A DNA stretch of 64,000 nt from Nitrospirota bacterium (GCA_963840455.1 CAWIYV010000011.1:1-64000), one strand, 5' to 3'. Shown: positions 4,024-54,673, counted from the first letter of the stretch. Translations and numbers: made by a program. The notes: a model not told the origin generated them from the letters alone.

Positions 4024-4135
4024 TTGAAGCTCCCTGCAGCAAGCGGCAGGGAATCTTCGATCCTTAAGGAACTATCGTTATTCTAATCGTTCGCTAACCC
4101 CGCAGCAAGCCACAGGGAAAGCGCTCGCTCCTGGA
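4024..4135 (-). mobile_element. Non-autonomous IS200/IS605-type element (PATE/MITE), copy 1
   Basis: Shares tccaggagcgagcg left end, two subterminal hairpins and ...gggagcTTCAA right end with six other copies. Confidence 0.85.
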
Positions 4136-4140
4136 TTCTT

Positions 4141-4227
4141 CTATTTTTTCTTAGCCGTCTTCTTCTTGGTCGCCTTCTTCACGGCCTTTTTCTTTGTCAT
4201 GCCGCAGCATCTTGTCCCGCAAGCCAT
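4141..4227 (-). CDS. 28-aa Cys/Lys-rich microprotein MACGTRCCGMTKKKAVKKATKKKTAKKK
   Basis: ATG at 4227 preceded by strong AAGGAGGTG RBS; TAG at 4143-4141; below the ORF-track cutoff. Confidence 0.7.
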   Translation of the reverse strand: MACGTRCCGMTKKKAVKKATKKKTAKKK

Positions 4228-4298
4228 CGTCCCTCACCTCCTTTCATTGATGGACTTATAACGATTTCGCGTCCCGGATCACTGCGCCCCGAACAGAC

Positions 4299-5228
4299 CT
4301 ATTTCGTCGCTGCTAGTATTTCCTTCGCCTGCTCCACATCCTTATGCATCTGGCGCACGAGGGTATCAGCGTCGGGGAACTTCTGCTCGCCCCGCAACCG
4401 CTTGATGAACGCCACTTCCAGATGCTTTCCATAGAGGTTGCCGTCGTACCCGAACAGGAAGACCTCAAGAGAGACCGGCCCGGAGCCGAAGGTTGGCCGG
4501 ACGCCGATGGAGGCGACGCCGTCGAGATGATGGCCACCGACCAGAACGCGCACGGCATAGACGCCGTGGGCCGGCAGGAGCTCGTTGGCCGTATTGATGT
4601 TCGCCGTCGGGAAGCCAAGGGTGTGGCCGCGGCTTTCACCGTGAACCACGTTCCCCTCGATGGCATAGTGCCTCCCCAGATAGGGATAGGCCTCTTCCAG
4701 GCGCCCGCTGGACACCAGGTCACGGACCAGGGAACTGCTCACAACGACCCCGCCCACCTGCACGGCCTCCACCACACCGACGGTAAAGCCGAGGGCCGCC
4801 CCAATGGACTTGAGCGAGTCGATGCTCCCCTCCCTGCCCTTGCCGAAGGCGTAATCGTAGCCGACATACACCTCCTTCACCCCGATCTTCTCCACCAGCA
4901 CGCGCCGAGCGAAGTCCTCGGGGTCCTGTTCCGCGAACTCCCGCGTGAAGTCGGCGCAGATGGCGATTTGGATGCCCGCCGCCTCGATGAGCTTCATTTT
5001 ACCGTGGAAGGTGTTCAGGAGCATGGGAGAACGCTCCGGGGCAAGGACCTTGAGGGGATGGGGTTCGAAGGTGAATGCGATGGCGGTGCCGCCGCTCTCC
5101 CTTGCCCGTTCGACGACCTTTTTGAATATGGCCTGGTGGCCGAGATGAACGCCATCGAAATTGCCGAGGGTGAGCACAGGACTGGGAAACTTCTCGGTGG
5201 TATTCTTGATGCCCCGGATGATCCTCAT
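4299..5228 (-). CDS. ribF: Bifunctional riboflavin kinase/FAD synthetase
   Basis: LGNFDGVHLGHQ, FTFEPHP, GFPTAN, RGEQKF motifs; start MRIIRG at 5228. Confidence 0.96.
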   Translation of the reverse strand: MRIIRGIKNTTEKFPSPVLTLGNFDGVHLGHQAIFKKVVERARESGGTAIAFTFEPHPLKVLAPERSPMLLNTFHGKMKLIEAAGIQIAICADFTREFAEQDPEDFARRVLVEKIGVKEVYVGYDYAFGKGREGSIDSLKSIGAALGFTVGVVEAVQVGGVVVSSSLVRDLVSSGRLEEAYPYLGRHYAIEGNVVHGESRGHTLGFPTANINTANELLPAHGVYAVRVLVGGHHLDGVASIGVRPTFGSGPVSLEVFLFGYDGNLYGKHLEVAFIKRLRGEQKFPDADTLVRQMHKDVEQAKEILAATK

Positions 5229-5287
5229 CGCGCAGGGATAATCGCACACTATGATCCTTTTGTCAACGGTACGGAGCCGAAAAGTTA

Positions 5288-5317
5288 TTGACAATAAAAG
5301 AGACCCTGTGCTATAAC
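5288..5317 (+). promoter_or_regulatory. sigma70 promoter for DUF1015-gap operon
   Basis: TTGACA-18-(TGc)TATAAC. Confidence 0.6.
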
Positions 5318-5361
5318 TTGAAGTCTTTCGGGGCATATTTTCTCGAACAAGGATTCGATCC

Positions 5362-52530: not shown

Positions 52531-52797
52531 TCCCCTCATGAGGGGTGCCATTATCAGACAGTGATCTAGTGACGCACCAGACATTCCTAAGACCGGACCT
52601 TGTGCACATCGGGGAGACCCTTTACCAGGCAATTGCCGTGTATCACAGTCGAGCTCAGCCCGGCGATAATCTTTCTATCAGAAATACTCATTCCCTGGAA
52701 CAATGGTGTATGCAGGTTTTCGGCCTTTGTTCTGGTTGCGCCACCACCCTTGTTCACAACTCCCTTGATCCGATCTTTGTCCATTCGAGGCTTAACG

Positions 52798-53284
52798 ATG
52801 AAAAAGTCCCTATCGCTTGCACTGTTGATTTTCTTTGTGGTGTGTGGTTGCCGCACCAGTCCTGATACGAACATGCAGGCGGTCAAAGATACGGTCCTGA
52901 GGTACAATCAACTCCTTGCCGAGGCATACGCTAGCATGAACATGAACCCCCTTCGGGAAGTGGCGATAGCTGATCAGGCAGCAAAGGAATACCGTCATAT
53001 GGCTGCCCTGGGCGAAGCGAAGATCCGGATGGAGTCCACGTTAAAGAGCATTGAGTTCAACGGGATCACCTTTCCTGGCCGTGATGAGGCGGCGGTGATC
53101 ACTAGAGAGACATGGGATTACACGCACATCGATACAGGGACTCGTGCGACCGGTTAAAGTACAAAAGAACGTTTCCTACACACTTAAATACGCATTGAAA
53201 AAAGAGAACGCACGATGGTATGTCGTGTCCATTGAGGCTGTCGACGAGAAATATTCAAAGGCATTGCGAAGGCGAAGGGAGTAA
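52798..53284 (+). pseudogene. Lipoprotein (NTF2/Tim44-like fold suspected), frameshifted near 53149
   Basis: MKKS..VVCG-C lipobox; frame stops at 53157, while the shifted frame continues PVKVQKNVSYTLKYALKKENARWYVVSI. Confidence 0.65.
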
Positions 53285-53404
53285 TAACGGGAAATGAGCT
53301 TGGTGAGTATTAGCAACGATGTCTCCCTCTCTGGGAACACCTGGTGGCTGCCATGCACGATCTTGTGGCAATACTGCTTTCAGTACCGTGATATCCAGAT
53401 AAAA

Positions 53405-53440
53405 GAAAAAGGGGATGATGGTCTGGCCATCATCCCCTGG
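53405..53440 (-). terminator. Intrinsic terminator of radical SAM gene
   Basis: aaaaggggatgatgg-tctgg-ccatcatcccct. Confidence 0.7.
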
Positions 53441-53458
53441 AGCGTCCGATCTCTTCCG

Positions 53459-54574
53459 TTATTTCTTCTTCACCGGCTCGTAGGTGCAGAACGGCTCGGG
53501 GCCCAGGTAGTCCCCGGACATCGCGAAGGAACGGGCGCGGCAGCCGCCGCACACCTTCCGGTATTCACAGATGCCGCATTTGCCGTGGTAGTGGTCGAGG
53601 TCGCGCATCTCCAGGAAGAGTTTCGAGGTCTGCCAGATCTTCGAGAAGGGCTCCTTCTTGATGTCGCCCGCCTCCTCCTCGAGAAAGCCGCAGATCTGCA
53701 CCTTGCCCACATGGGACACGAAGGCGAAGCTCTGGCCGCCCATGCAGCCCTTGGTCATGGCATCGAAGCCGTGCGACTCGGGCGTGACGGTCTTCCCCTT
53801 TTCCTTCTCGCCCTGGCGGAAGATGCGGTAGTAATGGGGCGCGCAGGTGGGCTTGAACTGGATCGGCACCTTGTCCCTCATTTCATAGAACCACTTGAGC
53901 GTGCTCTCGTACTCCGCCGGCGGGATCTCCTGGTCGATCAGCTCCTTGCCCCTACCGGTGGGCACCAGCAGGAACGGGTGGTACGCCACGGCGCCGAGCT
54001 TGATGACCATGTCGAGGAGCGCCGGGAGGTCCTTCACGTTGTGCTTCGTGATGGTCGTGTTGACCTGGAACTCCATGCCGACCTTTTTGAAGTTCTCGAT
54101 GGCCTTCATCACGCTCTCGAAGGCCCCTTCTACGCGCCGGAAGTTGTTGTGCTGCACCGCGGTCAGGCCGTCGATGGACAGCGACACGCGCATGATGCCC
54201 GAGTCCTTCATCTTCTGCGCCAGCTCCTCGGTGACCAGCAGGCCGCAGGGCGCCATGACCATGCGCAGGCCAAGCTGGGTGCCGTGCTTGGCGATGTCGT
54301 AGATGTCGGCGCGCATCATGGGCTCGCCGCCAGTCAGGATGATGATGGGATCGCTGAAGGACTTGACATCGTCGAGGAACCGGAACGCGTCCTCGGTCGA
54401 AAGCTCGCCCGGATAGGGGCCGTACCGCGCCGCTGCCCTGCAGTGGACGCAGTTCAGGACGCAGCTCCGGGTCACCTCCCAGGCGATGAGCCGGGGGAGA
54501 TATTTCTTTTCCGCGCCCGCGCCTGCGGGATGACCGTGACCGTGTGGCGCTTTCGTTGCATGGGGATGGGACAT
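53459..54574 (-). CDS. ahbD: Radical SAM/SPASM heme synthase (AhbD-like coproheme decarboxylase)
   Basis: LIAWEVTRSCVLNCVHCRA, TGGEP, FLLVPTGRG, KPTCAPHY, SPASM GKCGICEY..CGGCRAR; RBS GAAGGAG. Confidence 0.8.
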   Translation of the reverse strand: MSHPHATKAPHGHGHPAGAGAEKKYLPRLIAWEVTRSCVLNCVHCRAAARYGPYPGELSTEDAFRFLDDVKSFSDPIIILTGGEPMMRADIYDIAKHGTQLGLRMVMAPCGLLVTEELAQKMKDSGIMRVSLSIDGLTAVQHNNFRRVEGAFESVMKAIENFKKVGMEFQVNTTITKHNVKDLPALLDMVIKLGAVAYHPFLLVPTGRGKELIDQEIPPAEYESTLKWFYEMRDKVPIQFKPTCAPHYYRIFRQGEKEKGKTVTPESHGFDAMTKGCMGGQSFAFVSHVGKVQICGFLEEEAGDIKKEPFSKIWQTSKLFLEMRDLDHYHGKCGICEYRKVCGGCRARSFAMSGDYLGPEPFCTYEPVKKK

Positions 54575-54592
54575 GAGTGCTCCTTCGGGATA

Positions 54593-54673
54593 TTGAAGCA
54601 CCCTGCAGCAAGCTGCAGGGAACATTCGATCCTCACAGGGTGGTATTATTTCTTCTGATCGTTCGTTTCTGGA
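54593..54673 (-). mobile_element. IS200/IS605-type MITE, copy 7 (left hairpin deleted)
   Basis: TTGAA|tccag...ccctgcagcttgctgcagggtgcTTCAA, 81 bp. Confidence 0.8.

Follow-up and report, generated by a model that had tools for sequence, protein, structure and literature searches.

A gene-less ~112-nt repeat spread through a Nitrospirota genome is very likely an IS200/IS605-type palindrome-associated transposable element

The stretch of DNA analyzed here, called the window throughout, comprises 64,000 nt of a Nitrospirota bacterium (GCA_963840455.1 CAWIYV010000011.1:1-64000; contig C11:1-64000) whose genome has 4.03 Mb, 58% G+C, and a completeness of 100% by markers, though it lies in 14 contigs. 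Scattered between positions 4024 and 54673 are seven copies of a ~112-nt repeat, the subject of this report, for which an initial annotation made from the sequence alone had proposed an IS200/IS605-type element without a transposase gene. A repeat search recovered all seven at the positions given there, alignable end to end (six full, one truncated), and alignment and a profile search confirmed them. Copies 29121 and 33730 (we name each copy by its first position) lie on the plus strand and the other five on the minus strand. TGAA stands directly 5′ of the left end in five of the seven, as had been noted, with AGAA at copy 4024 and ATGA at copy 33730.

The top strand reads, from 5′ to 3′, TGAA (flank), then the element: TCCAGGAGCGAGCG, CATT, CCCCGCAGCTTGCTGCGGGG, a variable core of ~45 nt, GATT, CCCTGCAGCTTGCTGCAGGG, AGCT, and TCAA. 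No terminal inverted repeats appear in the copy alignment; the two subterminal hairpins both lie on the top strand, in direct orientation. The copies, and the parts of copy 46309 as exemplar, are as follows.

4024–4135, minus strand: full copy 1, 112 nt; target AGAA on the element strand, at 4136–4139
29121–29230, plus strand: full copy 2, of the AGCT type (GATT replaced, stem extended, end ATCAA); target TGAA at 29117–29120
33730–33840, plus strand: full copy 3, right hairpin degenerate; target ATGA at 33726–33729
40690–40801, minus strand: full copy 4; target TGAA (TTCA on the plus strand) at 40802–40805
44024–44136, minus strand: full copy 5; target TGAA
46309–46421, minus strand: full copy 6, the exemplar for the sub-features below (repeat search, alignment, DNA fold, profile)
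54593–54673, minus strand: truncated copy 7, its left end cut down to the first 6 nt, the left hairpin deleted and the right end intact; target TGAA
46422–46425, minus strand: target and left cleavage tetranucleotide TGAA of copy 6, in the flank outside the element; retained in empty sites
46408–46421, minus strand: left-end 14-mer, consensus TCCAGGAGCGAGCG, between cleavage site and guide
46404–46407, minus strand: left guide CATT, 4 nt abutting the hairpin foot on its 5′ side
46384–46403, minus strand: left subterminal hairpin, consensus CCCCGCAGCTTGCTGCGGGG (fold, pairing count)
46337–46340, minus strand: right guide GATT (quartet counts)
46317–46336, minus strand: right subterminal hairpin CCCTGCAGCTTGCTGCAGGG (fold, pairing count)
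46309–46316, minus strand: right tail AGCT and right cleavage tetranucleotide TCAA, which holds the element's final base (logo, quartet counts)

A profile built from six window copies matched the genome 351 times at E ≤ 1e-3, with 231 matches near full length. This is about one per 11.5 kb; the initial annotation had set the density at one per ~9 kb. The matches fall into 263 clusters (199 solitary, 64 groups of 2–4). In the window, the profile gave six full-length matches (E 1e-32 to 8e-39) and one partial match (54591–54665, E 6e-14) and no eighth copy, the remaining matches being opposite-strand self-matches of the hairpins or having E ≥ 0.9; 20 shuffles of the window yielded two matches, the best at E = 2. 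Units are 105–120 nt long, below the size needed to code for a transposase. Among 80 canonical units, the median identity was 85% between pairs and 92% to the consensus, with variation focused in ~10 central bases. No Rfam family matched the window at the gathering score, and none matched at E ≤ 1 over 43900–46600, which holds two copies. Our literature searches, with supplements outside their scope, found no paper describing the repeat in Nitrospirota.

We defined the ends from logos of the 231 near-full copies, 226 of which gave a left anchor and 221 a right anchor. In these flank logos, a check that the initial annotation had suggested, the left boundary stands out sharply: random flank is followed by T85 G73 A94 A96 and then by TCCAGGAGCGAGCG at 92–98% per position. 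The right end reads ...GGGAGCTTCAA; T comes next in 69% of copies and C in another 25%. Tetranucleotides were counted over the 214 units in which both anchors were found. The four bases 5′ of the element were TGAA in 135, TAAA in 26, CGAA in 13, and TCAA in 11 (the genome frequency of TGAA is 0.45%). CATT occupied the left guide position in 120 units, together with TGAA in 85; the 4 nt before the right hairpin were GATT in 89 and AGCT in 71; and the final four bases were TCAA in 141 and TAAA in 47. GATT was paired with TCAA in 81 of the 89 GATT units.

In IS608, TnpA binds subterminal hairpins, and 4-mers at the hairpin feet (AAAG on the left) pair with the cleavage tetranucleotides TTAC and TCAA, with T-4 and A-2 interacting inside each cleavage site (PMC3201880). 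From AAAG/TTAC and from G-35, A-34/TCAA (PMC3201880) we derived a position mapping: bases 1, 2, and 4 of the guide pair with -3, -4, and -1 of the cleavage site, respectively. CATT/TGAA and GATT/TCAA both satisfy this mapping, and each cleavage site shows the T-4 and A-2 of IS608. For the full right guide of IS608 we draw on general background. The intact guide/cleavage code that had been claimed for the repeat thus holds for the canonical subfamily but not for the 71 of 214 units that carry AGCT.

A single-stranded DNA fold of a copy gives two hairpins (z = -4.4). RNAalifold on 57 copies from several genomes returned only a partial structure with zero compensatory pairs, and we therefore scored pairing on the stated structure. 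Of the hairpin cells, 88% were paired, and both-side changes occurred in 7 of 18 pairs compared with 2.8 ± 1.4 in shuffles, a value of 7 being reached by 2 of 500 shuffles. The compensatory hairpin changes described in the initial annotation are real but modest.

Five sister genomes of the same genus (G001–G005) are collinear with parts of the window and show insertion sites in the empty state (a caret marks the junction). The site of copy 29121 is empty in G003 (...CTTGAA^CCGCGAAAG) and in G004 (...CATGAA^CCGCAAAGG), with junctions CTTGAA^CCGCG and CATGAA^CCGCA, respectively; the filled site here reads ...CATGAA, element, CCGCCACGG. The site of copy 33730 is empty in G004 (GGATGA^GCGAATCCCACGAGG, first letters GCGAATCC) and reads GGATGA, element, CGGGGCCCACGAGG here; G003 has two tandem units at this site, and G002 and G005 have long variants. 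For copy 4024, the empty site ...GAGAA^A(A)GCGG is found in G002, G001, and G005, and here we read ...GAAGAA, element, TAAGCGG. Copies 40690, 44024, 46309, and 54593 have no clean empty site among the five sister genomes because their flanks are not collinear there. Further comparisons come from a second repeat, which we call repeat X, with two TGAA sites. Scans listed 12 empty and 11 occupied matches for site 1, and 14 empty and 6 occupied matches for site 2 (two of these six lacking the repeat X context). Site 1 is filled by no fewer than six distinct subtypes of the element, so these are mostly independent insertions. In every comparison of empty and occupied sites, the element begins directly after the tetranucleotide and ends at ...CAA (± 1 nt). 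We found no target duplication at the three orthologous loci or at more than 20 paralogous sites; insertion 3′ of TGAA (AGAA and ATGA at copies 4024 and 33730) without duplication, as first proposed, is borne out both in the sister species and in repeat X.

Several features of these sites are recorded here in their own right. At the copy 33730 site, G001 (L043, C134 ~5340–5370) has a 24-nt remnant, TGAA^TCCACGAGCGAGCG-TGCCG-TTCAA, which is the element's first 14 nt joined to its last 5 nt. Repeat X is a nested palindromic sequence of ~190 nt, CCCCTGCATCCCG-TGAA-CAGGTCNGTGCACAAGCATGC ... GCATGCCTGCGCGGACCTG-TGAA-CCGGGGTGCAG-AAAAAA, with at least 19 core matches genome-wide (for example C7:423630–423830, C9:196396–196700, and C13:46427–46860; L263–L265 of this genome, G000), and both of its TGAA sites are insertion hot spots for the element. 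It had no Rfam match at E ≤ 1, and its outer palindrome without the core gave 0 matches.

Copy 33730 has entered the ATGA at which the stop codon of a response-regulator gene overlaps the start codon of an RNA methyltransferase gene. G004 retains this overlap; in the window (33726–33907), the element sits exactly there and severs the original start. The longest in-frame methyltransferase ORF (open reading frame) now begins at ATG 33788, within the element and with GAGGATAA upstream, and a start at this codon would swap MSES for 20 element-encoded residues. Copy 4024 is flanked by the stop codon of a small lysine-rich ORF and by a terminator-like hairpin. This ORF (4141–4215, minus strand, ending ...KKKAVKKATKKKTAKKK and stop) terminates 8 nt before the copy and is kept in G001, G002, and G005 with variable K-rich repeats. 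Adjoining copy 29121, at 29255–29345, is a member of a short inverted repeat family (GCGCAAAGGACGCAAAGGAAG ... CCTTCGCGTCCTTCGCGCTCTTCGCG) that also occurs in the same spacer of G001, G003, and G004 (L043, L054, and L051, respectively); related sequence fills the ~250-nt inserts of the long variants of G002 and G005 at the copy 33730 site.

Autonomous elements with the same hairpins exist outside the genus. Y1 genes occur in 51 of 61 genomes of the wider family, and 6 of 29 examined Y1 loci are IS200 elements with near-identical hairpins (G053, G046, G066, G076, G010, and G070). The sister-genus hairpins read CCCAGCAGC-TT/TCT-GCTGCTGGG on the left and CC(C/T)CGCAGC-TT/TCT-GCTGCGGGG on the right. 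Six identical copies in G076 have the order target TTAT, AAAAACATCCTGA, guide AATA, hairpin ... GATG, hairpin, TAAT, TCAC(T), which fixes the element ends at TTAT^AAAAAC...TTCAC(T)^; the right end in G053 is AATG, hairpin, TTAT, TTAC. These parent-type elements are ~520–560 bp long and carry tnpA only. Their TnpA proteins (140–147 aa) are NF033573 equivalogs and match the ISDra2 and IS608 TnpA structures.

We extended the comparison to metagenomes, where a scan for the hairpin with a YHxV(W/F) motif after it returned at least 120 IS200 loci. Among the 120 listed, the left hairpin is identical to that of the repeat in 71, with 15 of its 20 nt preset by the search pattern, and both hairpins are identical over 20/20 nt in 15, the right hairpin being unconstrained by the pattern. 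The guide rule held at the right ends of 47 of 68 readable loci among those listed at a 4-nt offset and of 7 more at 5 nt. In these autonomous elements guide and cleavage site co-vary through GATA/TCAT, GATG/TCAC, AATG/TTAC, GAAG/TCAC, CATG/TGAC, and AATA/TTAT, and six obeying combinations were reached in 3 of 5000 permutations. The repeat adds GATT/TCAA, with an equal offset, to this series. The repeat shares with the GCAGC-TT-GCTGC IS200 elements the hairpins, a guide made up of the 4 nt directly 5′ of the foot, a right tetranucleotide 4 nt past the hairpin, T-4, A-2, the guide mapping, and a target that flanks the left end only; it differs from them in having no tnpA and in a 14-mer, TGAA, and TCAA that are its own. 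Its left spacing from cleavage site to guide agrees with that of the sister-genus IS200 group (13–14 nt), whereas the identical-hairpin group has its left cleavage site 6 nt from the guide and the target TTAA. IS608 differs in its 19-nt and 10-nt spacings and in the extrahelical T of its hairpins (PMC3201880).

The initial annotation had also considered the right end as a possible remnant of a TnpB omega-RNA (reRNA) scaffold. We reject this candidate: the genome has no PF07282 or PF01385 match (control searches were positive in 8 of 14 genomes), Rfam gave no match at E ≤ 1 over two copies, and the parent-type relatives carry tnpA only, so no omega-RNA is expected for the repeat.

We searched the genome for an enzyme that could move the repeat and found two Y1_Tnp matches, both broken. 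The first (L001, C10:393710–394108, minus strand) is an IS200 gene in which an in-frame TAG replaces the Tyr codon of YHLVW and which has also lost its left hairpin; its intact counterpart in G004 (L032, C84) is 88% identical in DNA and has hairpins CCCCCGGCTCCTGCCGGGGG at both ends. The second (L002, C14:236722–237190) is the remnant of a ~300-aa type joining Y1 to a DnaA_C-like domain. Proteins with Y1_Tnp and a DnaA_C-like helix-turn-helix, of ~290–350 aa, are numerous in the family (L034–L041), and G005 has up to 17 Y1_Tnp matches, mostly of this type, of which the present genome retains only a remnant. A tblastn search of the genome with IS200 TnpA matched the broken gene alone, and no IS fragment was seen at the genome's contig ends. 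A left-end pattern scan of species-representative genomes gave at least 69 loci, 64 containing the repeat and 5 being chance matches without it; tblastn with three Y1 queries found no Y1 gene beside the left-end matches among these loci. In metagenomes, a scan for the left 14-mer followed 105–135 nt on by a YHxVW codon motif returned nothing in that gap range, and the 14-mer was in none of the 120 metagenome IS200 loci as listed. Viral contigs gave 0 matches to the left-end pattern and 2 to the right-end 17-mer (L141 and L142). Amplification by a Y1 transposase acting in trans, as first proposed, is to this extent unsupported: neither a working enzyme in the genome nor one with these hairpins in the genus was found.

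Of the Y1 genes, just the Y1-DnaA_C type is shared by all five same-genus genomes. We considered that the repeat might be a REP (repetitive extragenic palindromic)- or REPIN-like element (a REPIN being a REP pair) spread by a RAYT (REP-associated tyrosine transposase) or by these ~300-aa proteins. REP elements resemble the repeat in that they, too, are numerous intergenic hairpins preceded on the 5′ side by a tetranucleotide guide, and a Y1 HUH enzyme processes them by the same chemistry (PMC6006769). REPs, however, are single palindromes of 21–65 nt, usually in inverted pairs and clustered around one RAYT gene (PMC6006769), whereas the repeat is a ~112-nt unit of two direct hairpins with no inverted pair, a specific target, and defined left and right ends whose guides differ from each other, none being of the GTAG type. 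Apart from the IS200 elements themselves, the 31 Y1 loci examined (L001, L002, and L013–L041) have neither the repeat nor its hairpin less than 1.5 kb away, and no associated RAYT was found among them; eight of these loci are of the ~300-aa type, none with a repeat nearby. Since the genome's sole Y1-DnaA_C copy is a remnant, and the repeat has hairpins that recur unchanged in bona fide IS200 elements, we consider a REP-like origin improbable, though it fares best among the alternatives.

The repeat is present in 5 of 5 same-genus genomes, in 10 of 19 other genomes of the same family, and in 1 of 16 genomes from other families of the phylum; copies in other genera have the same ends. The hosts of the 64 repeat-containing loci are nearly all metagenome-assembled genomes labelled Nitrospirae, Nitrospiria, or Nitrospiraceae. 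One locus (L068), a 4.18-Mb contig labelled uncultured Chloroflexia, has a full-length copy (128.7 bits), which could be due to mislabelling or transfer. The repeat is largely intergenic: at 87% of 288 loci, the overlap with genes, as crudely called, is under 20%. For replication direction we relied on GC skew alone and treated the skew-positive strand as the leading-strand sequence, which is the template of the lagging strand. The element's top strand lies on this strand at 179 of 262 loci (p = 3e-9). The bias persists in convergent and divergent spacers, where gene sense does not define the orientation (64 of 87 on the skew-positive strand, p = 1e-5), and the same bias is known for the IS200/IS605 family (PMC5027513).

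Orientation also bears on the alternative that the repeat is a structured RNA or DNA element selected by the host (a 3′-untranslated-region stabilizer, a terminator, or a regulatory RNA) and multiplied through recombination or duplication and not through transposition. Relative to co-directional flanking genes, units are sense at about 2:1, copy 4024 lies between a stop codon and a terminator, some sites are filled across several species of the genus, and the sequence is 85–93% conserved across genera, all of which would fit such a function. Against it, empty and filled sites differ by the exact unit, placed 3′ of TGAA-like tetranucleotides without homology for recombination; there is no Rfam match, covariation is weak, and the features match transposon ends point for point. 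Host selection could account for later exaptation of single copies and not for the origin or spread of the family, and as an explanation of these it seems to us quite unlikely.

Two aspects of the family, head-to-tail arrays and a second subfamily without the GATT guide, are absent from the initial annotation. Many copies lie in arrays that begin after TGAA. Array-internal units read ...GATCGAAGCTCCATGC..CTTCAGGGAGCTTAAA^TCCAGG, lack GATT, and have a degenerate hairpin; the internal junction is ...AGCTTAAA^TCCAGG, with TAAA where TCAA is expected, and 38 of 41 AGCT/TAAA units directly abut another left end. The last unit of an array has a normal right end. About one-third of units, mostly array-internal, are without the right-end code, and because internal units have lost the right guide and hairpin, only the outermost array ends look cleavable. 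We tried AGCT as a guide, either as the 4 nt before a stem of fixed length (which predicts CTNA) or before an extended stem, and rejected it, as neither yields the observed end at the usual offset. The tails AGCT-TCAC and AGCT-TCAT are seen among the listed metagenome IS200 loci. Other forms are 46-nt minis in which the left hairpin is fused to the right, variants of ~89 nt in which the left hairpin is missing, and longer ones of ~150 nt that carry an insert.

Arrays whose internal right ends are defective resemble read-through of a weak terminus, as might be left by a non-autonomous derivative of a rolling-circle Y2 HUH element (IS91/ISCR-like), and a tetranucleotide target, absence of duplication, and a subterminal hairpin would suit such an element as well. 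The IS200 arrangement of hairpin and guide at both ends, with hairpins identical to those of Y1-encoding IS200 elements, makes a Y2 derivative very improbable; the genome has no Y2_Tnp match, although control genomes were equally silent and this search is uninformative. A classical miniature inverted-repeat transposable element moved by a DDE transposase, which a small, intergenic, high-copy repeat might suggest, is refuted by the boundary data, there being no terminal inverted repeats and no target-site duplication at any empty site.

Several observations weigh against an IS200/IS605-type origin. The right boundary is settled only to 1 nt, with T after TCAA in 69% of copies and copy 4024 ambiguous. 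The copies, at a median pairwise identity of 85%, are not young. Most of the 71 of 214 units with AGCT for GATT have a degenerate right hairpin, and four AGCT units have no right guide that fits the rule even though their hairpin is perfect, their end TCAA, and their target TGAA. There is no intact Y1 gene in the genome, and the hairpin CCCCCGGCTCCTGCCGGGGG of the genus's only IS200 type differs from those of the repeat. Across 24 relatives searched with both queries, the repeat-rich genomes have no IS200 genes bearing the repeat's hairpins, and genomes with such IS200 elements have few or no repeats, G010 being an exception. On the left, the distance from cleavage site to guide is 14 nt in the repeat and 6 nt in the identical-hairpin IS200 group. 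The 69 genome loci, the 120 metagenome loci listed, and one directed scan yielded no autonomous element that has the left 14-mer or the exact termini; by the initial annotation's own reckoning this counts in part against its proposal. Finally, units are sense to co-directional flanking genes in 121 cases vs 54, and 72% of genes follow the skew, so the orientation bias is partly entangled with gene orientation.

Despite these points, we conclude, with a probability of roughly 0.85, that the ~112-nt repeat is a non-autonomous, gene-less element of the IS200/IS605 type, that is, a palindrome-associated transposable element (PATE). The observations that carry this conclusion are the boundaries and target, insertion without duplication, guide complementarity, hairpin identity with autonomous IS200 elements, and orientation bias. 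The repeat is a new and very abundant member of this already known class, with the anatomy and guide code that the initial annotation had described; the empty sites, the tetranucleotide counts, the autonomous relatives, and the orientation bias all bear out that assignment.

By analogy with IS608, an IS200-type Y1 (HUH) transposase supplied in trans would bind both hairpins on single-stranded DNA, and each 4-nt guide would pair with its cleavage tetranucleotide (positions 1, 2, and 4 with -3, -4, and -1). In known members the top strand leaves as a circle and re-enters 3′ of the target on the lagging-strand template (PMC3201880, PMC5027513, and PMC6006769). The top strand of the repeat would likewise be excised as a circle and be reinserted into the lagging-strand template, directly after TGAA and with no target duplication. 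We infer that TnpA was the mover. Because the genome has no working TnpA and copies lie at a median of 8% from the consensus, the burst is probably old, the enzyme having been lost or visiting from outside. The arrays, the 46-nt minis (by deletion between hairpins), and the ~89-nt and ~150-nt variants arose after the burst.

The PATEs of Haloquadratum walsbyi likewise have no inverted terminal repeats, carry near-terminal palindromes, cause no target duplication, and do not code for a transposase (PMC3119063), and PATEs are known in bacteria too, in Geobacillus stearothermophilus (bioRxiv 10.1101/2023.03.14.532601). There as here, the palindromes are held in common with IS200/IS605-type transposons, and terminal-only minis arise by deletion between palindromes (52 bp in Haloquadratum, 46 nt here); the Haloquadratum elements are mobile or polymorphic even where the tnpA genes are pseudogenized (PMC3119063). 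The present family differs in its scale, with ~350 matches to one family compared with 177–194 over six families in Haloquadratum (PMC3119063), in its host, a bacterial Nitrospirota family, and in its parent type, IS200 with tnpA only rather than IS605/IS1341 (PMC3119063). Arrays with inactivated internal right ends were not found in the parts of PMC3119063 and of bioRxiv 10.1101/2023.03.14.532601 available to us.

Public sequencing runs add a view of the window from outside the assembly. Metagenome contigs of four runs have loose ends at 46308 and 46425, the limits of the shared repeat. No public-run contig joins precisely across any copy, Logan contigs being short and breaking at the repeat; a joint in one run (29065 to 29385) omits a 319-nt spacer and not the unit. 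Contigs from two metagenome runs of different studies (X5 and X6) join 41081 to 44157 via 6 other letters, which indicates a near relative without the 3-kb stretch 41082–44156 (two ORFs and copy 44024). Two public RNA runs contained only 5–7% of the sequence words. At the contig start (1–1332, minus strand) lies a partial bacterial 16S rRNA gene.

A more speculative reading concerns the arrays. Since internal junctions have TAAA and lack the right guide and hairpin, an array would offer TnpA just two ends to cut, the left one of its first unit and the right one of its last unit. It is conceivable, although we think it rather doubtful, that arrays are a higher-order single-strand transposon, moved and kept as one element and growing in place by unequal exchange; that the family outlived its transposase across the Nitrospirota family; and that single copies were co-opted, such as copy 33730, which would give the methyltransferase its only in-frame ATG. 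A bolder variant of this idea would make the ~300-aa Y1-DnaA_C proteins, the sole Y1 genes common to the repeat-rich genomes, the mobilizing enzymes.

The PATE family described here illustrates cleanly, in a natural setting, the guide/cleavage code that IS200/IS605 transposition carries in its DNA. Within one hairpin family, guide and cleavage site co-vary through at least seven combinations (six autonomous ones and GATT/TCAA), and this implies easy retargeting with the protein-binding hairpin kept. The metagenomic IS200 transposases with identical hairpins offer a direct route to a mobilization test. For genome work, annotators of Nitrospirota genomes should mask the family, which sits between translationally coupled genes, and should expect it to break metagenome assemblies, contig ends piling up at its boundaries. 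With ~350 matches in a 4-Mb genome and no working transposase, the family makes a case for the persistence of non-autonomous single-strand transposons, their decay into arrays and minis, and their co-option.

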